This document shows positions 5,736-26,012 of a stretch of 64,000 bases of DNA, one piece after another; positions within the stretch are counted from its first letter, which is position 1, and each line of letters starts with the position of its first letter. The position numbers and the translations under genes were made by a program. The stretch covers positions 495 to 64,494 of the forward strand of contig JBBRQL010000001.1 of the NCBI GenBank assembly GCA_038226425.1, given 5' to 3'. This stretch comes from Verrucomicrobiota bacterium (lineage in GTDB: Bacteria > Verrucomicrobiota > Verrucomicrobiia > Limisphaerales > UBA9464). The notes under the pieces were generated by a model. It made no database searches and was not told the DNA's origin. It was given only the letters and a program-made list of their open reading frames with translations.

Positions 5736-7547
5736 ATGAGCGCAGTAGCAGACGCCCCGGCACCGGCCGGTGGCCAATCCAGATTCACCAAGATCAACGA
5801 GGCGGTCATCCGCATCGCAGGCAACTCGCAGGACGGCATCCAGGCCATCGGCGGTTTCTTGGCCCGGCTCGCGGGCCGGAGCGAGCAGGAGGTCATGACC
5901 TTCATGACCATCCCGTCCACGATCTCGGGCGGGCCGTCGATCTTCCAGGTCCGCATCGGATCCGGCGAGGTGCTCTCGGCCGGCGACGAGGCCGACCTGC
6001 TCCTGTGCTTCTACCAGCACAGCTACGAGGACCACATCAAGTCGCTCAAGCTCGGCGGCATCGTGCTCTACGACGCGGACCACGTGACGCCCAAGGCCGA
6101 GTGGCAGGAAAGCTACCGCCATGTCGGCGTGAACATCTCCGGCCTCACCGTCGAGGCCATCGGTGGAACCGGCCGCGACAAGGGCAAGAACATCTACGCC
6201 CTCGGCCTTCTGGCCAAGATCTACGACCTCGACATCACCAAGCTGAAGCGCCTTTTCAGCGAGCGCTTCGGCGGCAAGGACGCGTCGATCCTCGACAACG
6301 CCAACGCCTGCTTCGATTCCGGCTACAACCACAGCCTCGAGAACCTGCTCAAGAGCTACCAGTTCTATCCCGGCGCGGACAAAGGCGGCCAGCAGGTGGT
6401 GATGAACGGCAACGAGGCCCTTGCCTACGGCCTCATCGCCGCGGGCGTGCGGTTCGGCGCCGGCTATCCGATCACCCCGTGGTCCGACATCATGGAGCTG
6501 CTCCGCAAGGAGCTCCCGAAGTACGGCGGCAGCTTCATCCAGTGCGAGGACGAGATCGCCTCCGTCTCCATGGCGCTCGGCGCCAGCTGGGGCGGACGCG
6601 TGGCGGTGACCGGATCGTCCGGCCCGGGCATCTCGCTGAAGACCGAGGCGATCGGCTGGGCGTCGATGGCGGAGATGCCGTTGATCGTCGTGGACGTGCA
6701 GCGCGGCGGCCCGTCCACGGGCATGCCGACCAACGTCGAGCAATCCGACCTCAACATCGCGACCTTCGGCGGCCACGGCGACAGCCCGCGCGTCGTGCTC
6801 GCGCCGAGCGGCGTCGAGGACTGCTTCTACACCGCGATCGAGGCGGTGAACATCGCGCGCAAGTACAGCACGCCGGTCTTCATCCTCACCGACCAGGGCA
6901 TCGCCACGCGCATCGAGGCGTTCCCCGAGCCGAAGCTCGAGCAGGTCTGCCAGGACATCTCCCCCGATCTGACGCCGGTCGCCGACCACAAGCCCTACGA
7001 CCTGAGCGCTCCGGACGGCCTCACCCGCCATCTTGCGCCCGGCACCCGCGTCGCGAGCGGCAAGTATCCGGTCGTGACCGGTCTCGAGCACGACGAGCTC
7101 GGGCATCCGACCGGTTCGCCCAAGGTGCATCTCGCGATGATCGCCAAGCGCCGCAACAAGCTGCGCAAGCTCGCTTGGGAACTCCCGTTGCCCAAGGTCT
7201 ACGGGCCCGATGAGGGCCAGATCCTGCTTGTCGGATGGGGCAGCTCCGAGGGCCCGATGCGTGAGGCCGTGGACCGCGCCCGTGCGGTCGGCGACGCCAT
7301 CTCGGCGATCAACCTCAAGCACATCAACCCGCTGCCGAACGGCTTGGAGAAGATCTTCAAGGGCTTCAACCACGTGTTCGTGGTCGAGCTGAACGACGAG
7401 GGCCTCTATGGCTACGGTCAGCTCGGGGCCGTGCTCCGTGCCCGCTATGCGGACCCGAAGATCCAAGGCATCAACAAGGTCGACGGCCTCACCTGGAAGG
7501 TGAAGGAGATCCTCGACCGCGCCCGCTCGCTCGCCAGCCCCAAGTGA
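5736..7547 (+). CDS. korA: 2-oxoglutarate:ferredoxin oxidoreductase subunit alpha (fused gamma-alpha type)
   Basis: 603-aa ORF with MNGNEALAYGLIAAGVRFGAGYPITPWSDI, CEDEIASVSMALGASWGGRVAVTGSSGPGISL and VDVQRGGPSTGMPT. The adjacent gene encodes the beta subunit. Confidence 0.92.
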   Translation: MSAVADAPAPAGGQSRFTKINEAVIRIAGNSQDGIQAIGGFLARLAGRSEQEVMTFMTIPSTISGGPSIFQVRIGSGEVLSAGDEADLLLCFYQHSYEDHIKSLKLGGIVLYDADHVTPKAEWQESYRHVGVNISGLTVEAIGGTGRDKGKNIYALGLLAKIYDLDITKLKRLFSERFGGKDASILDNANACFDSGYNHSLENLLKSYQFYPGADKGGQQVVMNGNEALAYGLIAAGVRFGAGYPITPWSDIMELLRKELPKYGGSFIQCEDEIASVSMALGASWGGRVAVTGSSGPGISLKTEAIGWASMAEMPLIVVDVQRGGPSTGMPTNVEQSDLNIATFGGHGDSPRVVLAPSGVEDCFYTAIEAVNIARKYSTPVFILTDQGIATRIEAFPEPKLEQVCQDISPDLTPVADHKPYDLSAPDGLTRHLAPGTRVASGKYPVVTGLEHDELGHPTGSPKVHLAMIAKRRNKLRKLAWELPLPKVYGPDEGQILLVGWGSSEGPMREAVDRARAVGDAISAINLKHINPLPNGLEKIFKGFNHVFVVELNDEGLYGYGQLGAVLRARYADPKIQGINKVDGLTWKVKEILDRARSLASPK

Positions 7548-7581
7548 ACCGGGACCGAACCTGACCGCGTTTTATCCAGAC

Positions 7582-8538
7582 ATGAGCACGCTCGCTTTCC
7601 CTCTCGTCTCCCTGCCCCGCACGGGCAGCCTCGACCTCACGCCGGTCGCGCCGCTCCTCGACGCCGACCGCAAGCCGCTGACCAAGAAAGAGATCTCCGC
7701 CGACCATCCGACATGGTGTCCCGGCTGCGGCGATTTCTCGGTCCTCGCGCTCTACTTCAAGCTCATCGAACGCCGCAAGCTGTGGCACGAGAAGGTGACC
7801 ACCGTCGCCGGCATCGGCTGCTCCAGCCGGTTCCCGTATTTCGTGCAGGGCCACGGCGCCCACTTCATCCACGGCCGTGCGCTGCCGTATGCCAGCGGCG
7901 TGAGCATCAGCCGGCCCGACCTGCATGTGTTCGTGTTCGGCGGCGACGGCGACGCCTTCTCGATCGGTGGCAACCACTTCACCCACACCGCCCGCAAGAA
8001 CATCAAGCTCACCTACGTGGTGATGGACAACCAGGTCTACGGCCTCACCAAGAACCAGACCTCGCCCACCTCGCCGCTCGGCTACAAGTCGAAGACCGAC
8101 ATCTGGGGCAGCTCGGACCGGCCGGTCAACCCCGTGAAGCAGGCGATCTGCGCCGGCGCGACCTTCGTGGCCCGTGCCTCGGCGATGAACCCCAACCATC
8201 TGCTCGCCACCATGGAGGCGGCGATGGACCACGACGGGTTCAGCTTCATCCAGTGCCTCAGCGAGTGCGTCGAGTTCTTCCCCGGTGCCTTCGACAAGGC
8301 CATCCCGCGCAAGGGCGGCGTGTTCAACGAGGTCCCGAAAGAGCACGACGTCACCGACGAGTACGCGGCCTACAAGCTCGCGGACGAGGCGTGGCCTGGT
8401 AATTTCGGCATCTTCTATAAAGCCGATCGCCCGACCAAGAACGCCAACGAGGCCAAGATCATCGCCGACCACAAGGCGAAGGTCCAAGGCATGGCCGACT
8501 GGCAGATCCTCCAGAAGAACTTCGACCGCATGAAGTGA
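7582..8538 (+). CDS. korB: 2-oxoglutarate:ferredoxin oxidoreductase subunit beta (TPP-binding)
   Basis: HPTWCPGCGDFSVL, GIGCSSRFPYF and FGGDGDAFSIGGNHFTHTARKNIKLTYVVMDNQVYGLTKNQTSPTS (TPP-binding motif). Confidence 0.92.
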   Translation: MSTLAFPLVSLPRTGSLDLTPVAPLLDADRKPLTKKEISADHPTWCPGCGDFSVLALYFKLIERRKLWHEKVTTVAGIGCSSRFPYFVQGHGAHFIHGRALPYASGVSISRPDLHVFVFGGDGDAFSIGGNHFTHTARKNIKLTYVVMDNQVYGLTKNQTSPTSPLGYKSKTDIWGSSDRPVNPVKQAICAGATFVARASAMNPNHLLATMEAAMDHDGFSFIQCLSECVEFFPGAFDKAIPRKGGVFNEVPKEHDVTDEYAAYKLADEAWPGNFGIFYKADRPTKNANEAKIIADHKAKVQGMADWQILQKNFDRMK

Positions 8539-10379: not shown

Positions 10380-12233
10380 TCACTTCGCGTTCGGGCCGAA
10401 AGCCCGGATGTTGAACCCTTGCGTGTCCCATGAGCCGGCGTAGACGGTCATGCCGAAGTGCCCGGCGATCTGTTCGAAGGGCGGCAGCAGCGTGGCATCG
10501 AACCACTCGTCCATCGCCTTCGTGGATTTCGGGTTGCTGCCCGGGACCATCTTGCCGAGCCCGCCGCCTTGGCGGAGCGCTTCCCACATCGCGCGTGTGG
10601 TCTCGCGCTGGTCCTGGTAGCCGAAAAGCCCCGTGCCCATGCCGCCGACCTTCTGCGCCGCCTCGGCGAGGCCCGGAGCATCCTTGAGCGGCTTGCCGCC
10701 GCCTTCGGCGCTGCGGAGATATTCTTCCAGCACCGCCGGGCTGCTGCCCATCGCGACGAACCCGCCGCTGGCCGCGACCTCGAGCAGCTTGCTGTCGGGC
10801 TGGCCGGGCGTGCCCATCTTGAGGCCGAAGATCTTCTTCCCGTTGAACTCGCGTTCCTTCGGGTCCTCGCCGCCGGTCGGCAACAGGCCGGCGGCCGCCT
10901 TGAAGCCCGAGGCGAGCTGGTCGGCGTTGCCGGAGCCGAGCAGCGTGAGGCCGGGCGGTTCGGAGAGCTCGGCCATCGTCTTGCCCTTCGGCGCCTTCTC
11001 GAAGGTCACGAAGTCGTCGCCGAGATTCCCGACGAAGGCTTTCTTGAAATCGAAGTTCGGGTCCTTGTCTTTGCCCAGCGCGCTGATCGACATCTGGAGG
11101 AACCCGCCGAGCTGCGGCGAGACCTCCGACAACATCGATTCGAGCGCGGCCCAGGTCTTCTGCCCGTTGAGCCGCCAACGTTGGAACTTCACCGCGTCCG
11201 CCGGCACGAAGGCGGGCGGCGCGGCGTCCTTCGGCTCGAAGGCGAACAGCTTGAAGAGGCCGGTCCGCTTGGCCTCGGGGATGCCGGCGGCGAAGATACC
11301 GAAGCTGCCCTCGGGCGTCTGCTGGGCGGAGAAGGCGAGGCTGCGCAGGCCGTCGATGCCGAACGCCGCGAGCGCCTTCCTCGGGTCGATGCCCAACGCG
11401 GCCGCCTGCGGTCGCAGCATGTCGGCGCCGGCCCCGAGCACGCCGGAGACGGCGGCGATGTTCACCCAGCCGAACGCGTACGAGCCGCGGAAGGAAGCGG
11501 CCTTCTCGCTGCCCTGGAACTCCGCGGTGTCGGCGACCGACGGCACCGATCCGCCGGTGAGCTTGGCGACGACCTTCTCGATCGCCTTGATCGAATCACC
11601 GACCACCAGCGCGGAATCGACCTGTCCGAAGGTCAGCTCCGTCTTCTTCGGCGTCTTGCCGTCCTTGTCGTCGTCATCGTCCTCGTTCTCCTTGGACTTG
11701 GGAGCATCCGCCTTCGGCTTCGGCGGATCGATCACGACGGTGGTGAACTCCACGTCGCGGATCTTCTCGGTCTTCAGCGGGCGCTTGGCCTCGGTCAGCT
11801 TCTGGCGCGCCTCCGCGAGCTTGGCCTTGAGCTGTTCCGACTTGTCCTTGGCGTCGAGCACGAGCACGACGGCCGGCTCGGTCTTGTCGTCGGCCAGGTT
11901 CCATCCGTTCTGGAGCAGCGCGACAGAGAGCTGGCCCTGGAGCAACGGGAGATAATCGGCCGTCTTGATGCCGAGCTCTTTCTCGAGGTCGCCGAGCACC
12001 TTCTCCGTGAACTTCGCCTCCAGCTTGTCGCGGAACGGCTTCATCGCCGGATCGGCCCACAGCTTGCCGTAGTTGCCGCCGTCGAACGCGGCCTTGGCTT
12101 CGGTCCATGCCGGGACGGTGACGAGCACCAAGGTGTCCTGCGGAAAGAGCTGGGCCGGCGGCGGAACAGCGGCGAAGGACCATGACAACGAAGCGGCTGC
12201 GACGATCGCGAGGAGAGGAAAGCGGAGTTTCAT
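10380..12233 (-). CDS. secreted hypothetical protein with acidic/lysine-rich linker
   Basis: 617 aa. Signal peptide MKLRFPLLAIVAAASLSWSFAA. The composition looks coding, and there is a central KSKENEDDDDDKDGKTPKK tract. No family was recognised by eye. Confidence 0.8.
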   Translation of the reverse strand: MKLRFPLLAIVAAASLSWSFAAVPPPAQLFPQDTLVLVTVPAWTEAKAAFDGGNYGKLWADPAMKPFRDKLEAKFTEKVLGDLEKELGIKTADYLPLLQGQLSVALLQNGWNLADDKTEPAVVLVLDAKDKSEQLKAKLAEARQKLTEAKRPLKTEKIRDVEFTTVVIDPPKPKADAPKSKENEDDDDDKDGKTPKKTELTFGQVDSALVVGDSIKAIEKVVAKLTGGSVPSVADTAEFQGSEKAASFRGSYAFGWVNIAAVSGVLGAGADMLRPQAAALGIDPRKALAAFGIDGLRSLAFSAQQTPEGSFGIFAAGIPEAKRTGLFKLFAFEPKDAAPPAFVPADAVKFQRWRLNGQKTWAALESMLSEVSPQLGGFLQMSISALGKDKDPNFDFKKAFVGNLGDDFVTFEKAPKGKTMAELSEPPGLTLLGSGNADQLASGFKAAAGLLPTGGEDPKEREFNGKKIFGLKMGTPGQPDSKLLEVAASGGFVAMGSSPAVLEEYLRSAEGGGKPLKDAPGLAEAAQKVGGMGTGLFGYQDQRETTRAMWEALRQGGGLGKMVPGSNPKSTKAMDEWFDATLLPPFEQIAGHFGMTVYAGSWDTQGFNIRAFGPNAK

Positions 12234-12285
12234 TCAGGAAAGGACCGGCCGGGTCGGGCGTCGTGGGAAGGTCGCGACGAAGCCG

Positions 12286-15200
12286 ATGTTGGCAAGCGGG
12301 AACTCGCGGCGGGGACCCGGTGCGCCGCCGCGCTTCGTTTGGTTCGTGCCGGCTTGCGCTCCGTGGCATGCTCCGCGGGTGCCTCCGGCCCATGGACCCG
12401 TCACACCGCCCGCTCCGGCCGTCGCCCGGGATGCCGTGCGGTCGTTGGCGTCGCCGGTGATGGTGTTGCGCGGGGTCGGACCCGAACGCGTCTTCCAGCT
12501 CGGCCGGCTCGGTATCCACACCGTCGGCGACCTGTTGCTGCACGCGCCGCGGCGATACGAGGACCGCCGGAAGTTCATCACCATCCGCGAGCTCGAGCTG
12601 GGCAAGAGCGCGACGGTCTTCGGCAAGATCATCGCCGCCGGGGTGAAGCGTTACCGCGGCGGCGCGAGGTCGGTGTACGAGTTCGTGATCGAGGACGGTT
12701 CGGCACGGCTGCATTGCCGATGGTGGAACCTGCCGTTCCTGGAACGCATCTTCGCGGTGGGCGACGAGGTCATGGTCTTCGGGAAACCGAACCTCCTGAA
12801 GCCTCGCACCATGGACCATCCCGAGACCGAGAAGGTCGAGGGCGGCGACGACGTCACGGTCCACATCAACCGCGTGGTGCCCGTCTATCCGCTCACGGAA
12901 GGACTGCCCCAGCGATCGGTGCGCAGCTTCCTATGGCGCGCGGTCGAGGAGTTCGCGGGCCAGGTGGGTGAGCCTGAACCTAGGCTGGTGCCGGTCGGAG
13001 CAGGGGGGCAGGGGAGCAGGGGGGCAGGGGAGAGCGTCCCCGTTTCTCCCCTGCCCCCTTTCTCCCCTGCTTTCTTCCCGACCCGTGCCGACGCCGTCCG
13101 CGTGCTGCATTTCCCGGCCGAGATCGCGGATGCCGAACGTGCGCGCCGTCGCTTGGCGCTCGACGAGTTCGTGGCGCTGCAGCTGGAGATCCAGCGGCGT
13201 CGGCAGAACCTGGAGCGCAACGCGCGGGCATTCCCGTGCGGCGGCGACAACCGGTTGATGAAACCGTTCCTCGCCGCGCTCGGGTTCAAGCTGACGGGAG
13301 CCCAGGTGCGGGTCCTGCGTGAGCTGCGGGCCGACCTCGCCGGCCCGGTGCCGATGCGGCGGCTGCTCCAGGGCGATGTCGGATCGGGCAAGACCGTGGT
13401 CGCCGCCGGCGCGGCGCTGATGGCGCTGGAGAGCGGATGCGACGTGGCGCTGATGGCCCCGACCGAGATCCTCGCGGCGCAGCTCCACCGCAACCTTGCC
13501 GGGTGGCTCGGACCGCTCGGCATCGCGGTCGACCTGCGCACGGGCTCCCACAGACAACGTGCTGCCAGCGTCCCGCTGGCAGCGACGAAACCGGGGCCTT
13601 CCCGGATGTCCACGACGGAATTCGCGTCGACGATGGCAGGCGAACCCTGCCGGCAAGATGCCGGCAGCACATTGTGTGATCCGTTCTTCGATCGTGGTTC
13701 CGACATCGAACGGTACCTCGGCTGGCTACCGCATTGGCGGCAGGCGGAGAAACTCTACTTCGTCACCTTCCGGCTCGAGGATTCGGTGGACCAACAGACC
13801 CTGAAGCTTTGGCAGCAGGAACGCGAGGTGTGGGAGCGCCATCATCCCAAGCCGTGGGATGACGCGGTCTGGCGGGAGCGCCAGGAACGGTTCACCCGCC
13901 GCAGCGAGGAACAGCTCGACGCCGGGCATGGTTCTTGTGCGTTGAGGCGGCCTGATGTCGGAGAGATCGTCGTGTCCGCATTGCGGCAGTTCGATGGCGA
14001 CAGGTACCAGCTGGGGGATTTCGTCGTGATGCCGAACCACGTCCATGTGCTGGTGCGGCCCGCGCCCGGACACGGGCTCGACCAGATCCTTCACTCATGG
14101 AAATCGTTCACCTCGAAAGCAGCCAACCGGAGCCTTGGACGGACCGGTGCGTTTTGGCGCGAGGAATCGTTCGACTATCTGGTGCGCAGCGAGGCGCAAT
14201 ATCAACGCTTCCGGGACTACATCTCGGAGAATCCGCGCAAAGCCTGCCTGCCCGGAGATGCCTATCGGCTTGGTGCCGGGAGTTTCACGCTTCCGTGGCC
14301 GGAACAACGTGCTGCCAGCGTCCCGCTGGCAGCGACGAAACAAGGGACTTCCCGTATGTCCATGACGGACCTCGCGTTGATGGTGCCAGGCGAGCCCTGC
14401 CGGCAAGATGCCGGCAGCACATTGGTGGTCGGGACCCATGCGTTGCTGGAGGACTCGGTCGGTCTCGGGAAGCTCGGGCTGGTCATCATCGACGAGCAGC
14501 ACAAGTTCGGCGTCGCCCAGCGCGAGACGTTGCTGCGGAAAGGCCGCGACGGCGGACGGTTCCCGCATCTGCTCGTGATGACCGCCACGCCCATCCCGCG
14601 GACGCTCGGGCTCACGCTCTACGGCGACCTGGACGTCACCTTGCTCGACGAGGTGCCGGCCGGACGCGGACGCATCCGCACGCACGTGCGCGATGCGGCG
14701 GCGCTGCCGAAGGTCTGGCAGTTCGTCCGCGCGGAGCTGGAGAAAGGTCGCCAAGCGTATGTCGTCTATCCTCGCGTGAGCGAATCCGACCGCGACGAGG
14801 TCAAGGCGGTCACGAAGGAGTTCGCCCGGGTCCAGCAAGAGCTCGCGCCGCACGGCGTGGGTCTGCTGCACGGACAGCTCCGCGCCGAGGAGAAGGACCG
14901 TGTCATGGCCGCGTTCCGGGCAGGGACGACGAAGGTCCTGGTCGCGACCAGCGTGATCGAGGTGGGCGTGGACGTGCCGAACGCCACGGTGATGCTCATC
15001 GAGGACGCCGAGCAGTTCGGGCTCGCGCAGCTCCACCAGTTGCGCGGCCGCATCGGCCGCGGCGCGCACGAATCGCACTGCATCCTCGTGGCGGAACAGA
15101 AGACCGATGCCGCGAAGGCGCGCCTGAAGGTGCTCGCGGAGACGACCGACGGGTTCGCGTTGGCCGAGGCGGACCTGCGCCTGCGCGGACCGGGCGAACT

Positions 15201-15315
15201 CATCGGCCGCCAGCAGAGCGGCGTCCCGGAGTTCCGCTTCGGCGACCTGCGCGGCGACCGCGACCTGGTCGAGCTGGCGCGCTCGCTGGTCCGGACGCAT
15301 CTGCGCGGGAAGTAG
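12286..15315 (+). CDS. recG: ATP-dependent DNA helicase RecG carrying two in-frame insertions (palindromic element; REPIN-RAYT-REPIN unit); functional status uncertain
   Basis: RecG N-terminus LRGVGPERVFQLGRLGIHTVGDLLLHAPRRYEDRR. Wedge region is present, followed by FKLTGAQVRVLREL, GDVGSGKT (motif I) and MAPTEILAAQ (Ia). After the insert come VVGTHALL, IIDEQHKFG (II), MTATPIPRT, VATSVIEVGVDVPNA and HQLRGRIGRG. The track start at 12073 overlaps the upstream gene. ATG 12286 is the first plausible start, and the true start could be as late as about 12379. Confidence 0.85.
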   Translation: MLASGNSRRGPGAPPRFVWFVPACAPWHAPRVPPAHGPVTPPAPAVARDAVRSLASPVMVLRGVGPERVFQLGRLGIHTVGDLLLHAPRRYEDRRKFITIRELELGKSATVFGKIIAAGVKRYRGGARSVYEFVIEDGSARLHCRWWNLPFLERIFAVGDEVMVFGKPNLLKPRTMDHPETEKVEGGDDVTVHINRVVPVYPLTEGLPQRSVRSFLWRAVEEFAGQVGEPEPRLVPVGAGGQGSRGAGESVPVSPLPPFSPAFFPTRADAVRVLHFPAEIADAERARRRLALDEFVALQLEIQRRRQNLERNARAFPCGGDNRLMKPFLAALGFKLTGAQVRVLRELRADLAGPVPMRRLLQGDVGSGKTVVAAGAALMALESGCDVALMAPTEILAAQLHRNLAGWLGPLGIAVDLRTGSHRQRAASVPLAATKPGPSRMSTTEFASTMAGEPCRQDAGSTLCDPFFDRGSDIERYLGWLPHWRQAEKLYFVTFRLEDSVDQQTLKLWQQEREVWERHHPKPWDDAVWRERQERFTRRSEEQLDAGHGSCALRRPDVGEIVVSALRQFDGDRYQLGDFVVMPNHVHVLVRPAPGHGLDQILHSWKSFTSKAANRSLGRTGAFWREESFDYLVRSEAQYQRFRDYISENPRKACLPGDAYRLGAGSFTLPWPEQRAASVPLAATKQGTSRMSMTDLALMVPGEPCRQDAGSTLVVGTHALLEDSVGLGKLGLVIIDEQHKFGVAQRETLLRKGRDGGRFPHLLVMTATPIPRTLGLTLYGDLDVTLLDEVPAGRGRIRTHVRDAAALPKVWQFVRAELEKGRQAYVVYPRVSESDRDEVKAVTKEFARVQQELAPHGVGLLHGQLRAEEKDRVMAAFRAGTTKVLVATSVIEVGVDVPNATVMLIEDAEQFGLAQLHQLRGRIGRGAHESHCILVAEQKTDAAKARLKVLAETTDGFALAEADLRLRGPGELIGRQQSGVPEFRFGDLRGDRDLVELARSLVRTHLRGK
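12999..13071. repeat. G-rich/C-rich palindromic element inside recG (tandem 16-mer x2 plus inverted copy)
   Basis: agcaggggggcagggg occurs at 12999-13014 and again at 13015-13030. A perfect 13-bp stem ggggcaggggaga (13021-13033) / tctcccctgcccc (13045-13057) has an 11-nt loop. The element is translated in frame as GAGGQGSRGAGESVPVSPLPPFSPAF. Confidence 0.75.
13554..13674 (+). repeat. REPIN-like repeat copy 1 (two hairpins in inverted orientation)
   Basis: Hairpin A is gctgccagcg-tcc-cgctggcagc (13561-13583, 10-bp stem). Hairpin B is ctgccggca-aga-tgccggcag (13647-13667, 9-bp stem). The termini gtgctgcc.../...ggcagcac are inverted relative to each other. Confidence 0.8.
14304..14424 (+). repeat. 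REPIN-like repeat copy 2
   Basis: Same length as copy 1 with no indels. By hand alignment there are 12 mismatches, all in the central spacer. The first 37 nt and last 36 nt, which include both hairpins, are identical. Confidence 0.8.
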
Positions 15316-15345
15316 CGGACGGCGGCGACTTCGGCACCGGATCGG

Positions 15346-15882
15346 TCACAAGGCGCGGCGCATCCGGACGAACGGGATGGTGAGGCCGTCCGGCAACGGA
15401 GCGTCGATCCGTTCGACCGCGACGAACCCGTGCGCGGCGTAGAGGCGCTCGCCGGGCAAGGTCGCGACCAGTTGGGCGTCTCGGAAACCGGCGACCGCGG
15501 CGGCGTACATGCTCGCCCGGAGCACCATCGAGCCGATGCCTTGGCGCGCTCGCTCCGGCGCGACGAAGAAGGCGCGGATCCGGGCCGGCTCGGTCGCTGG
15601 ATCGAGCAACGGGTCTTCGGCGGACTTCATCTGGTCGCCCCCGTAGAGAGTGCGCCGCCGGCTCCAGCCGCCGCATCCGACGAGGCCCGGAGCGTCGGTG
15701 ACCACGAAGTAGGTGCCGTCGTCGATCAGCCGGGTGTCCGGTCCGAAGACATGACGGATGGCGCTCTCGATCTGGGCCGGAGAATAGCACGTCCGGCCCA
15801 AGGCGCGGACCGAGCGCGGGATCAGCTCCCGGATCGCTGGAAGATCCGCTGCGGTCGCGAGACGGAGGGCCGGGCCTGACAT
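15346..15882 (-). CDS. GNAT family N-acetyltransferase
   Basis: 178 aa with the acetyl-CoA motif region FFVAPERARQGIGSMVL and YAAHGFVAVE. Confidence 0.85.
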   Translation of the reverse strand: MSGPALRLATAADLPAIRELIPRSVRALGRTCYSPAQIESAIRHVFGPDTRLIDDGTYFVVTDAPGLVGCGGWSRRRTLYGGDQMKSAEDPLLDPATEPARIRAFFVAPERARQGIGSMVLRASMYAAAVAGFRDAQLVATLPGERLYAAHGFVAVERIDAPLPDGLTIPFVRMRRAL

Positions 15883-23255: not shown

Positions 23256-26012
23256 ATGACCAAAGTGTCCAAACTCCTCCGCGTGTTCCTGCTGTGCGCC
23301 TGCGTCCAAGGCGCGTCGGGGCAGGCCCCGAGCCAGATCGCTGAAGAAGAAGCCATCCGGCGCCAGGAAAAGTCGATCCTGTTGCGCAGCACGCTTGAGG
23401 CAGCTCAGACGGCGCAGAAACAGAACGATCTCAAGACCGCTGCCAAGCTCTATGAAGATGCGTGGTCGTTGACCGAGGTGCTCGGGGCGAACGTGGAGGC
23501 CGAACGCCGCCAGACCGTGGCCGGTCTTTCCGGATCGCGCCTTCAGCTGGCCATCGCCGCGCAACGCGCCGGCGATGCGCGTGAAGCGGACACCCAGGTC
23601 ACCCGCGCGCTGAAGGTCGATCCGAACAACACGGTCGCCAAGAGCTTCAAGAAGGACAACGACCGCCGTCTGGCCGACCTTCAGGGCAGATTGCCGAGCG
23701 AAGCCGTCTTGGCCCGTGCAGCGGACCACAGCACCAACATGGTCAAGGTCGCGTCCTCGGTCCAGGACGGCGTGGTGCTGTACCAGATGAACAAACTGGA
23801 CGAGGCCGAGGAGGTCTTCCAGAAGGCGATCAAACAACAACCTGAAAACCAGGCCGCCTATTACTACTTGAACCTGATCCGCGAGGCGAAGTTCACCCGT
23901 GCGGCCAAGAACAAGTCGCTCACCACCAAGGACCGGCTGGTCGAGGTCGAACAAGCTTGGGAAACGCCCAAGTCGAACCTCCCCATCGCCAACCCGTGGG
24001 CCAAGACCAATCTGATCCACACCGGCAACGGACGCCAGATCATTGCGAGCAAGCTCGACCGGATCATCCTCAACGAGGTCAAGTTCGACGGTCTTCCATT
24101 GACCGAGGTCGTCAAGTACCTCGAAGAACAGGCCAAAGCCCGCGACCCCGAGAAGCGTGGTGTCAATTTCCTCATCAGCTCCAGCATCGACGTCCCGACC
24201 CCGCAGGCGACCCAGCAGTTCGACGCGACCGGCCAACCGGTAGCTTCGGCTCCGGTCGAACCGCTTGACCTCGGCAATGTGGTCATCCGCCTCAACCCCG
24301 GTCTGCACAACGTCCGGTTGGCCGATGCATTGGACGCCGTGACCAAGGTCGCTGAAAAACCGCTCAAGATATCGATCGAGGACTACGCGGTCATCTTCAC
24401 GCAGCGCCTGCCGGAGCCCGTCCAGTTGCACGCACGGCAATTCCGTGTCGATCCGAACACGTTCATGCAAGGGCTCCAGAGCGTTTCAGGCATCGACCTT
24501 GGTACGACCTTCCAGAGCACCGGTGGCGGCGGCGGCGGTGGTGGCGGCGGCGGCGGTGGTGGCGCCCAAGGCGGCCAAGGTGGTGGCATCTTCAATGTTC
24601 CCCGCGTCGATGTGAGTTCCAGCAGCAGCCAAGGTGGCGGTGGCGGAGCGGGTGGGCAGGGTGGACAAGGGATCACCGGTGTCACACGCACCAACTTGAT
24701 GGCCAATGTCCAAGTGATGGTTCGCCAATTTTTTGCGGCGGCCGGCGTCAACTTCCCGCAGACAGCCGTCCCCGGCCAAGGCGGGGCCGGTGGTGGCGGC
24801 GGTTTCGGAGGCGGCGCGCAGCAACAGCAGTTCGGTCTCAACGGCCAGGCCCAAGAAGTCGATGCGAAGGCGCTGTTCTTCAATGACCGGACCGGCATCT
24901 TGTTTGTGAGGGCGACTTTGTCCGACCTCGATATCATCGAGAAGGCCATCCAGGCGTTGAACATCGCTCCGGCCAACATCGAGATCGAGGCACGTTTCGC
25001 GGAGGTCAGCCAGACTGACAGCAAGGCGCTCGGGTTCCAATGGTTCTTGGGAAATTTCCTGATGGGCGGTGGCAAAGTAGGTCTTAGCGGTGGAACCGCT
25101 CCTTCGTATCAAGGGCAAGCGTCTGCGGCCAACCCCGACGGGGTGTTCCCGCAGTACGGGAACATCTTGCCTTCGGGCAGTGACCAGAACGTCACCGCCG
25201 GCCTTCGGAACATCGATGGAAATCAAAGTGCCATCCCGACCGTGGCGACGCTGAGCGGCATCCTTACCGACCCGCAGTTCCGCGCGGTGATCCAAGCACT
25301 CGACCAGCGTGATGGCGTCGAGTTCCTCATCGCACCGAAACTGGTCACCCAGAGCGGGCGTCAAGCCCATATCGCGGTGAACGATGCCCGCACGGTCGTC
25401 GTGGGTGTCGGTCAGAACCAACAAGGTTCTGGCGGCGGTACCGGAAACACTGCCAACGGTGTCAACGGCAACACGGGCGGCGGCGGCGCCGTCGCAACCG
25501 CGATCCAATACCAGACCACGGTGTTCCCGTTCGGTCCGACCTTGGATGTCGTCCCGTACGTCTCTTCCGATGAGTCGTCCATCCAGATGACCATCATCCC
25601 GAGCCTCACGGAATTCGTCGGCTACGATGATCCGGGCGGTTTCGTGCCGCAGGCCCAGTCCGTCGCCGGGAACACGGTCGGTACCTCGTTGAAGGCGGTC
25701 TTGCCGCTCCCTCGTATCCGGGTTCGCCAAGTCGTGACCAGTGCCACGGTCTGGGACGGCCAGACGGTCGTCTTGGGCGGCCTCATCTCCGAAGATGTGA
25801 AAAAATCGCGGGACAAGGTGCCGGTCCTGGGTGACATCCCGGTGCTGGGACGCCTCTTCCGCAGCGAGAACTCGCTGAACATCAAGAAGAACCTCATCAT
25901 CTTCGTGACGCCGACGATCCTCGATCCGTCCGGCCATCGCGTGAACGATCCGCGTAGCCTCCCGTTCGATCCGAACTCCTTCCCGGCCTTGGCTCCGACC
26001 GCGATCAAATGA
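23256..26012 (+). CDS. pilQ: outer-membrane secretin (PilQ/GspD family, Amuc_1098-like) with N-terminal TPR region and Gly-rich linkers
   Basis: Signal LLRVFLLCACVQGASGQA and a TPR-like N-terminus. STN-like LDRIILNEVKFDGLPLTEVVKYLEEQ. Secretin core ...VTSATVWDGQTVVLGGLISEDVKKSRDKVPVLGDIPVLGRLFRSENSLNIKKNLIIFVTPTIL. Confidence 0.9.
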   Translation: MTKVSKLLRVFLLCACVQGASGQAPSQIAEEEAIRRQEKSILLRSTLEAAQTAQKQNDLKTAAKLYEDAWSLTEVLGANVEAERRQTVAGLSGSRLQLAIAAQRAGDAREADTQVTRALKVDPNNTVAKSFKKDNDRRLADLQGRLPSEAVLARAADHSTNMVKVASSVQDGVVLYQMNKLDEAEEVFQKAIKQQPENQAAYYYLNLIREAKFTRAAKNKSLTTKDRLVEVEQAWETPKSNLPIANPWAKTNLIHTGNGRQIIASKLDRIILNEVKFDGLPLTEVVKYLEEQAKARDPEKRGVNFLISSSIDVPTPQATQQFDATGQPVASAPVEPLDLGNVVIRLNPGLHNVRLADALDAVTKVAEKPLKISIEDYAVIFTQRLPEPVQLHARQFRVDPNTFMQGLQSVSGIDLGTTFQSTGGGGGGGGGGGGGGAQGGQGGGIFNVPRVDVSSSSSQGGGGGAGGQGGQGITGVTRTNLMANVQVMVRQFFAAAGVNFPQTAVPGQGGAGGGGGFGGGAQQQQFGLNGQAQEVDAKALFFNDRTGILFVRATLSDLDIIEKAIQALNIAPANIEIEARFAEVSQTDSKALGFQWFLGNFLMGGGKVGLSGGTAPSYQGQASAANPDGVFPQYGNILPSGSDQNVTAGLRNIDGNQSAIPTVATLSGILTDPQFRAVIQALDQRDGVEFLIAPKLVTQSGRQAHIAVNDARTVVVGVGQNQQGSGGGTGNTANGVNGNTGGGGAVATAIQYQTTVFPFGPTLDVVPYVSSDESSIQMTIIPSLTEFVGYDDPGGFVPQAQSVAGNTVGTSLKAVLPLPRIRVRQVVTSATVWDGQTVVLGGLISEDVKKSRDKVPVLGDIPVLGRLFRSENSLNIKKNLIIFVTPTILDPSGHRVNDPRSLPFDPNSFPALAPTAIK

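Follow-up and report, generated by a model that had tools for sequence, protein, structure and literature searches.

Repetitive extragenic palindromic (REP) sequences paired as inverted doublets (REPINs), the REP-associated tyrosine transposases (RAYTs) and the association between the two have already been well described (PMC3116915, PMC3337134). In the systems closest to the one reported here, the REPINs of Pseudomonas fluorescens SBW25 and the REPtron of Escherichia coli, a Y1 HUH nuclease is flanked by REPINs (PMC3337134, PMC3479197), which consist of inverted REP doublets with conserved hairpins, a 5' tail and a free spacer. Open questions are the way in which REPINs are copied and the cellular function of RAYTs (PMC3337134, PMC3479197). 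Palindromic repeats read in frame within coding genes are known as well, namely the intragenic REPs of Opitutus terrae and the Rickettsia palindromic elements (Di Nocera 2013, PMC3733652). Intragenic REPs are often located in replication or repair genes, are most numerous in the verrucomicrobium O. terrae and are presumed to occupy tolerant loops (PMC3733652).

A 64-kb stretch of DNA from a Verrucomicrobiota bacterium (contig JBBRQL010000001.1), called the window below, was analysed here, with repeat, motif and open reading frame (ORF) searches run across its whole length. Its recG gene encloses a RAYT bracketed by two REPINs; together they make up a cassette 870 nt (290 codons) long that shares the orientation and reading frame of recG. 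The locus shares with the described systems the inverted REP doublets, conserved hairpins, free spacer and 5' tail as well as a REPIN-flanked Y1 HUH nuclease with matching motifs and fold, but the RAYT is an internal domain of RecG instead of a free-standing gene, and the REPINs are translated. The intragenic REPs of PMC3733652 are likewise in frame but consist of short REP units only, whereas here a transposase is nested too. What sets the locus apart is the RAYT itself being nested in frame within a host gene. The reading considered probable, with good though not full confidence, is that of a REPIN-RAYT-REPIN cassette expressed as part of RecG, with hairpins constrained as DNA, and with cassettes turned over and exchanged at the site.

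The flanks of the RAYT were identified, by a repeat search and MAFFT alike, as direct repeats of 121 nt each, located at 13554-13674 and 14304-14424. The start-to-start distance is 750 nt, and the copies are identical at 109 of 121 positions (90%), with no indels. Equal length of the two flanks and a spacing of 250 codons had been claimed in the original prediction, made from the sequence alone, and both were confirmed, the copies lying in the same frame of one ORF. The same holds for the placement of all 12 mismatches in the central spacer, since they were found at repeat positions 39, 40, 44, 52, 60, 67, 68, 75, 78, 80, 83 and 91; the pairwise alignment proposed as a check was gap-free, with mismatches in the centre and not spread evenly. 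The identical ends measure 38 nt and 30 nt, so of the 37 and 36 nt counted by hand the second figure was wrong. No second repeat of comparable size was present in the window.

Each repeat was found to be an inverted REP doublet. In the left REPIN (13554-13674, + strand), which encodes QRAASVPLAATKPGPSRMSTTEFASTMAGEPCRQDAGSTL within RecG, hairpin 1 occupies 13561-13583 and reads GCTGCCAGCG-TCC-CGCTGGCAGC, with a conserved 5' tail, CAACGTG, ahead of it; it was detected both as an inverted repeat and in single-stranded DNA (ssDNA) folding. Hairpin 2 (13647-13667), detected by ssDNA folding, reads CTGCCGGCA-AGA-TGCCGGCAG followed by CACATTG and is the same REP inverted. In the right REPIN (14304-14424, + strand), encoding QRAASVPLAATKQGTSRMSMTDLALMVPGEPCRQDAGSTL, the two hairpins lie at 14311-14333 and 14397-14417, each supported by an inverted repeat, a pattern match and the ssDNA fold. 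In both copies the stem of hairpin 1 (GCTGCCAGCG/CGCTGGCAGC) comprises 10 bp with 3 more pairs past a bulge, and that of hairpin 2 (CTGCCGGCA/TGCCGGCAG) 9 bp. Folding either strand as ssDNA gave two terminal hairpins per copy (z from -5.1 to -5.9 relative to shuffles), in agreement with the 10-bp and 9-bp hairpins that had been placed within the identical ends and with the proposal to fold the top and bottom strands. The REP matches at 13559(+)/13647(-) and 14309(+)/14397(-) are offset by 88 nt, and the hairpin pattern occurred four times in the window, where no match was expected by chance.

Both copies have the inverted termini GTGCTGCC.../...GGCAGCAC. The proposed REPIN layout with a RAYT was borne out in this respect and by the match of the enclosed domain to PF01797. 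Direct orientation of the flanks, noted in the original prediction as a departure from the common RAYT arrangement, is not really unusual: the inverted doublet within each flank leaves the RAYT between inverted REPs, as the described systems have it. The tail reads CAAYGTG, with its GTG abutting the stem (GTGC), and does not conform to the GTAG superfamily; the AAYGTG (GTGC) tail sets the locus apart from the described REPIN-RAYT systems, with their GTAG. GTGG variants of the tail have been reported in O. terrae (PMC3733652) and in some subclass 2.2 REPs (PMC6006769). The two REPINs are also not extragenic, as both lie within the recG frame and are translated.

Conservation along the REPIN was assessed with eight copies from four genomes. 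Varying columns made up 6 of 62 in the hairpins and tails and 27 of 58 in the spacer (Fisher test, p ~1e-5), and between genomes hairpins and tails were 93-94% identical versus 64-66% for the spacer. The 12 nucleotide differences between the flanks of the window result in 9 amino-acid changes, and the ratio of nonsynonymous to synonymous divergence (dN/dS, ω) of the left flank was 0.63 between loci L124 and L137, the single pair for which cassettes in near-identical RecGs were compared at the DNA level. The constraint acts on the DNA and not on the protein. The left REPIN is free of stop codons in all six frames and the REPINs overall in almost all six; in structural models the left-REPIN peptide had no secondary structure and a predicted local confidence (pLDDT) <35.

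Identical repeat ends could also arise by gene conversion between neighbouring copies, without any constraint on the hairpins. Some concerted evolution would fit the observation that the spacers of the window's flanks share 79% identity with one another and 64-66% with those of relatives' REPINs. However, the excess conservation of hairpins and tails was seen between genomes, beyond the reach of local conversion, and identical hairpin 24-mers were found across many species. Diverged cassettes moreover keep their hairpins through compensatory changes: the stem reads CTGCCAGC in the window and CCGCCGGC in L124, where both arms have changed (CCGCCGGC/GCCGGCGG), while the 88-nt geometry is the same. 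Gene conversion in place of hairpin constraint was therefore judged improbable, and constraint on the hairpins as DNA is the preferred explanation of the identical ends.

The region between the repeats, 13675-14303 on the + strand, contains the RAYT core of 209 codons in the recG frame, a Y1 HUH tyrosine transposase recognized by its match to Pfam PF01797 (IS200-like Y1 transposase), by alignment to E. coli TnpA_REP (PDB 4ER8) and by the structural model. The HUH motif, HVH (within 14038-14052, +), aligns with HMH of TnpA_REP, and the catalytic-tyrosine motif DYISENP (14215-14235, +) with DYIYINP (Y115). Both motifs were kept in all four aligned RecG-nested RAYT proteins, and they fit [ND]HVH / YI[LR][NQ]NP of Y1 subclass 2.7 in the classification of PMC6006769. 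In the structure prediction, based on two separate alignments, one of RecG and one of RAYT, most of the RAYT core had pLDDT >90, with means of 10-residue blocks between 87 and 98. The best Foldseek match was 4er8_A (E 2.9e-6, probability 1.00), followed by the TnpA proteins of ISDra2, IS200 and IS608; TnpA_REP, the closest structure, is a monomer (PMC3479197). Judged from motifs and model, the RAYT domain is intact and of the TnpA_REP type.

With its HUH and tyrosine motifs, TnpA_REP/IS200 fold and REPIN flanks, the domain thus has the features of a RAYT, except that it is not a free-standing gene (~150-330 aa), as no stop codon follows it. It also has no start of its own, and the nearest in-frame ATG codons lie within the left REPIN. 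The core is open in the +1 (recG) frame alone, and a total of 21 stops was counted in the insert's other five frames. Lacking a start and a stop, the RAYT could be produced only as an internal domain joined to RecG. A scan for transcription signals, weak for Verrucomicrobiota, found no internal sigma-70-like promoter and no convincing terminator around the RAYT.

The recG coding sequence as called (12460-15315, +) encodes 951 aa (P0001, 100% match) and reads through the insert. It is part of an ORF, 12073-15315 (+), in which the two repeats and the 629 nt separating them are all included. Translation probably begins upstream of 12460, for instance at the ATG at 12286, since the in-frame upstream peptide 'RSLASPV' ('SLASPV') matches N-terminal extensions of RecG homologs. 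The Pfam families RecG_wedge, DEAD, Helicase_C and RecG_dom3_C identified the product as RecG, and it was 91-94% identical to insert-free RecGs. As the cassette contains no stop codon, RecG would be translated straight through. The G+C content of the insert (0.60-0.655) is lower than that of the adjacent recG (0.675-0.75).

The insert interrupts RecG after the strand ...VDLRTGSHR and before the strand VVGTHALL, i.e., between helicase motifs Ia and II. The upstream edge of this insertion site (13381-13554, +) extends from helicase motif I, GSGKT (13381-13395), to the strand LRTGSHR (13534-13554; residues 356-360 in the model), and its downstream edge (14425-14502, +) from VVGTHALL (14425-14448; model strand 654-658) to motif II, DEQH (14491-14502). 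The stretch bounded by motif Ia and VGTHA varied in 115 verrucomicrobial RecGs from 38 to 333 residues with almost no conserved sequence, which marks it as a hypervariable linker; this linker is probably disordered. In the model of the 951-aa protein (predicted template modelling score, pTM, 0.51), the RecG domains, both bordering strands and the RAYT domain were folded, whereas the REPIN-encoded residues 367-429 and 614-651 were unstructured, with pLDDT <50.

Two further sequence features of RecG linkers were recorded. A G/C-rich quasi-palindrome of ~80 nt, GGAGCAGGGGGGCAGGGGAG...CTCCCCTGCCCCC, is located at 12997-13077, in the recG linker between the wedge and the helicase; loci L001-L004 carry a shorter and less perfect version in the same place, and it gave only sub-threshold miRNA-like Rfam matches. 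The RecG linkers of P0085, P0093, P0107 and P0119 contain other repeat-like peptides ('SNIQ...', 'STLNPQPSTLF', 'HPASSIQPPASS'), which may derive from other palindromic repeat families at the same spot.

A high G+C content favours long open frames, and 17% of 290-codon windows in this G+C-rich stretch are stop-free, so recG might be taken for a pseudogene broken by the insertion, with a frame that stayed open by composition. The location of the RAYT in the strand and frame of recG (chance 1 in 6), the missing terminal stop and the 21 stops in the other five frames of the insert speak against it. RecG (5 cases), PriA (at least 7) and dozens of other host proteins showed the same in-frame nesting. 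The part of RecG downstream of the insert is under purifying selection, with a dN/dS of 0.03-0.05 at a dS of ~0.25 relative to its relatives. Moreover, 12 differences between the flanks over 53 spacer positions (39-91) indicate that the cassette did not arrive recently. A broken recG is accordingly extremely improbable, and a cassette read through as part of RecG is preferred.

Two other kinds of in-frame or self-removing insert were considered and rejected. For an intein, no Hint or intein family was found in the Pfam scan, and the junctions HR|QR and TL|VV lack splice-junction residues. For a self-splicing intron or IStron, no match at gathering score was found in Rfam for 12000-15500, and none to an intron family; the Rfam matches in this region were nearly all miRNA-like and directed to an unrelated hairpin.

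Variants of the insert were identified at the same position in four syntenic loci, whose RecGs share with that of the window 94% identity in the N part and 98% in the C part; all of these variants are in frame. In place of the cassette, L002 has one 120-nt REPIN, L001 two tandem REPINs with a 123-nt period and L003 three tandem REPINs, whereas L004 carries an unrelated 78-nt linker. Alleles with zero, one, two or three REPINs thus exist at the recG site besides the one with the RAYT, and RAYT-less recG alleles are common. The two-REPIN allele equals the cassette of the window minus the 627-nt RAYT core. Solo-REPIN alleles of two other cassette types were also found, P0029 (L137 type) and P0040 (P0016 type). 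The deletion product foreseen in the original prediction, recG in frame with a single 40-aa REPIN-encoded linker, exists in nature in L002, and P0029 and P0040 are its counterparts for the two other cassette types. As L004 has an unrelated linker and no clean empty site, REPIN-free and REPIN-bearing alleles differ by replacement. The L004 linker (11094-11171, approximate coordinates) is G/C-rich and reads PGAEPGPPSGELRLGARPPESGAVGR.

These alleles bear on whether the flanks could mark the two ends, left and right, of an insertion sequence (IS) of the IS200/IS605 type, an autonomous element that jumped into recG, or else a target-site duplication. Elements of this type (IS608, ISDra2) have in common with the cassette the Y1 HUH fold and a hairpin at either end on one strand, so placed that a 750-nt unit could be excised as a single strand between equivalent points. 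Y1 transposases need such same-strand hairpins and direct repeats supply them; the fold matches include IS608, ISDra2 and IS200 TnpA, and there is no other copy in the window. On the other hand, the flank occurs alone and as tandem arrays without a transposase at the same site in relatives, the same REP forms transposase-free doublets on many contigs of other genomes, and the best match in both sequence and fold is TnpA_REP and not an IS transposase. The flanks are two copies of one REPIN, with no second full copy in the window, whereas the ends of IS200/IS605 elements differ from each other, and these elements make no target duplication. A target-site duplication was rejected also because the repeat is unlike RecG sequence and occurs alone at the site in relatives. 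Insertion-sequence ends were hence regarded as very improbable, and REPINs flanking a RAYT as the better description of the locus.

More distant RecGs were found to carry a RAYT in the same place and in frame (P0013, P0014, P0016 and L137, 62-68% identical to the RecG of the window). Direct REP or REPIN flanks were present in every RAYT-bearing RecG with readable DNA; in L124 they are 119 nt long and 744 nt apart, and L125 retains the outer hairpins only. Within a group of three RecGs, 96-97% identical among themselves, the RAYTs are only 61-72% identical and the flank peptides differ. RAYTs so diverged in near-identical RecGs indicate that cassettes are exchanged or replaced at a single site, and this replacement of RAYT variants in near-identical hosts is a further difference from the described REPIN-RAYT systems.

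Between L124 and L137, the N part of RecG showed a dS of 0.36, a dN of 0.023 and an ω of 0.06. For the RAYT, the dN was 0.19, with ω ~0.07, and the proportion of synonymous differences (pS) was 0.73, a saturated value that can be relied on for no more than its inequality with the host dS. The low ω shows that the nested RAYT is held by purifying selection, and the saturated synonymous divergence relative to a host dS of 0.36 that the RAYT is much older than the split of the hosts. On these comparisons of sequence, the cassette appears to be functional and is exchanged at the recG site.

The distribution of the REP was examined in one genome per species (GTDB) with the pattern GTGCTGCCRGC-N5-GCYGGCAG, which gave at least 117 matching stretches. 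About 77 of them came from metagenome-assembled genomes (MAGs) of Verrucomicrobiota, often from several contigs per MAG. Among the matches listed, 30 of 36 close REP pairs were convergent doublets, doublet spacings clustered at 40-51 and 80-92 nt, with the 88 nt of the window recurring, and the dominant loops, ATCTT and GTCCC, were the two found in the window. The 24-mer of hairpin 2 was present in identical form in many other Verrucomicrobiota MAGs. None of the REP loci among the matches listed lay in recG or beside a close RAYT, which indicates that the REP family is dispersed. As to the expectation of the original prediction that the hairpin motif has other copies, none was found elsewhere in the window, but copies are abundant in other Verrucomicrobiota genomes, so at the level of the family the prediction is not refuted. 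A dispersed REPIN population is apparent at the level of the family, in these other Verrucomicrobiota, the window being all that represents its own genome. The peptide motifs encoded by the REP were found in few other RAYT proteins, as each lineage has its own REP variant. A 116-nt REPIN in the MAG of L124 (L065, 2204-2320; assembly JAYUSF01) has CTGCCGGC-type stems, unlike the CCGCCGGC stems of the L124 flanks.

In the cassette reading, the RAYT would be held within RecG by two floppy REPIN-encoded linkers of ~40 aa each. The hairpins and their 5' tails would be conserved as DNA structures, most likely as sites at which the RAYT binds and cleaves ssDNA, and the spacer of the REPIN would be free to drift. 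That hairpins with CAAYGTG tails serve as RAYT substrates is suggested by analogy with GTAG and hairpin in TnpA_REP (PMC3479197). The site would gain and lose units that are multiples of three, either one REPIN (120-123 nt) or a REPIN plus the RAYT (750 nt). Y1-type single-strand cleavage and rejoining at equivalent points of direct REPINs would give such gain and loss, and ordinary recombination or slippage between REPINs would yield the same products. The direct orientation of the flanks places identical hairpins on one strand at the two ends, the geometry needed by a Y1 enzyme. Resident REPINs might then act as landing pads, where different RAYT cassettes replace one another. A chimeric RecG-RAYT protein would presumably be made and be active, with the insert kept in the mature RecG.

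Several points weigh against this reading. The case for expression and activity of the chimera draws on dN/dS and on an AlphaFold model of moderate quality (pTM 0.51), and the saturation of the RAYT synonymous divergence mentioned above limits the dating of the cassette. The observed alleles fit turnover catalysed by the RAYT and homologous recombination or slippage alike. Simple insertion and excision cannot explain all alleles, given the unrelated linker of L004. Outside recG, neither the 64-kb window nor the relatives' syntenic loci of 22 kb contained a REP copy.

Nesting of RAYTs is not confined to recG. The closest relatives of the RAYT of the window (57-66% identical) were all nested in recG (5 cases) or in priA. 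The 12 nearest metagenomic relatives (57-63% identical) all lay within long open frames, one of which was recG; of the other 11 loci, 7 were scanned with Pfam and all 7 proved to be complete priA genes of 1002-1144 codons. In priA, the RAYT follows the 3' DNA-binding region and precedes Walker A, again in frame (L126-L136, L122), and the nearest 'solo' protein, P0121, is also in priA. Flanks in the RecG and PriA loci were direct REP or REPIN repeats, with spacings of 702, 711, 714, 717, 741, 744 and 750 nt, all multiples of 3. In L122, tandem arrays of 122-nt REPINs were present on each side of the RAYT and after priA. The priA portion downstream of the RAYT in this locus (6887-8483) is broken across three frames at repeat-free places; because seven other PriA-RAYT genes are intact, these breaks most likely reflect indel errors of a long-read assembly and not a pseudogene.

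In-frame nesting is common across this RAYT family. Among the best 150 cluster representatives, 75 were free-standing and 37 were internal to larger proteins, scored as such when at least 150 residues of host protein lay on each side of the RAYT. Hosts with the RAYT in frame included type IIG and type I restriction-modification enzymes, LeuRS, ValRS, XseA and a DinG-like helicase, and further hosts were the CCA-adding enzyme, CarB, MetH, PdxA, HypF, a Mur ligase and adenosine deaminase (examples in hosts other than RecG and PriA: L160, L163; P0296, P0333, P0338; P0245-P0376).

A free-standing close relative, P0122, was found in L123 (6001-6771) between glcD-like and glcF-like genes, with overlapping stop and start codons; its ORF has REP hairpins inside both ends. 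Plain RAYTs of 180-345 aa (P0130, P0135, P0147, P0192 and others) carry the JGI label 'type I restriction enzyme R subunit', a misnaming probably carried over from restriction enzymes with a nested RAYT.

The concentration of the closest relatives in recG and priA raises the question of adaptive tethering, an addition to the cassette reading in which fusion to RecG or PriA was selected since it brings the HUH nuclease to stalled forks and D-loops with single-stranded REPs. The RAYTs nested in RecG and those nested in PriA came out as sister clades in a neighbour-joining (NJ) tree, with a bootstrap (out of 100) of 59 for RecG, 84 for PriA and 60 for the two jointly, the support being moderate. 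Strong purifying selection on the nested RAYT would agree with tethering, as would the fact that the IS608 and ISDra2 enzymes, Y1 transposases too, act at forks on ssDNA of the lagging strand (PMC6006769). The insertion points are, however, not equivalent, as the RAYT lies between motifs Ia and II in RecG and ahead of Walker A in PriA, and the frequency of RAYT-less alleles also argues against selected fusion. Distant members of the family are nested in proteins unrelated to forks (LeuRS, ValRS, MetH, PdxA, HypF and others), which favours insertion into any permissive loop. The clade pattern speaks for tethering being useful, the wide range of hosts among distant relatives for mere tolerance. 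Adaptive tethering was treated as possible but less likely than not.

A bolder extension would make RecG-RAYT and PriA-RAYT two-function enzymes, in which a lineage of REP nucleases has persisted as non-splicing in-frame inserts in both fork-restart helicases of Verrucomicrobiota and moves between alleles by homing onto resident REPINs, with the helicase handing single-stranded hairpins at stalled forks to the nuclease. This was viewed as rather unlikely; if true, it would tie the cellular role of RAYTs and REPINs to replication restart. For the cassette reading itself, a RAYT found only as part of RecG, or of PriA in sister lineages, would offer natural constructs for the coupling of REP processing to stalled forks.

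Some features of the cassette recall inteins, which are likewise selfish nuclease-bearing in-frame inserts in housekeeping genes, helicases included, with a patchy distribution among relatives and diverged variants at one insertion point. The differences are the absence of a Hint domain and of splice residues (junctions R/Q and L/V) and the type of nuclease, here HUH Y1, which by analogy would act on ssDNA hairpins. A transposase that persists inside a housekeeping protein without splicing would be intein-like, minus the intein chemistry.

HUH nucleases joined to helicases in one polypeptide are familiar from the relaxases TraI and TrwC, rolling-circle Reps and Helitrons, in which the domains are arranged in series and the helicases belong to superfamily (SF) 1 or SF3. 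Here, in contrast, a fork-remodelling helicase of SF2 carries the HUH domain within its RecA-like domain 1, as an insertion that is polymorphic.

In the literature, no report of in-frame nesting of a RAYT in recG, priA or another host gene came up in a search in which most subscription journals were outside the coverage; papers naming both RAYT and RecG described no fusion, and none was found that named RAYT and PriA. The main text of PMC3733652 does not mention recG or priA (its supplementary tables were outside this check). The main survey of RAYT and Y1 proteins set long proteins aside as 'gene fusions or annotation errors' (PMC6006769). Nested RAYTs are of this kind, and for annotation they matter also because they appear to have seeded the wrong names of plain RAYTs.

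Outside the recG locus, the largest other repeat family in the window was a run of GGC/GGT triplet repeats at 24510-24820, which is probably a glycine-rich coding stretch.

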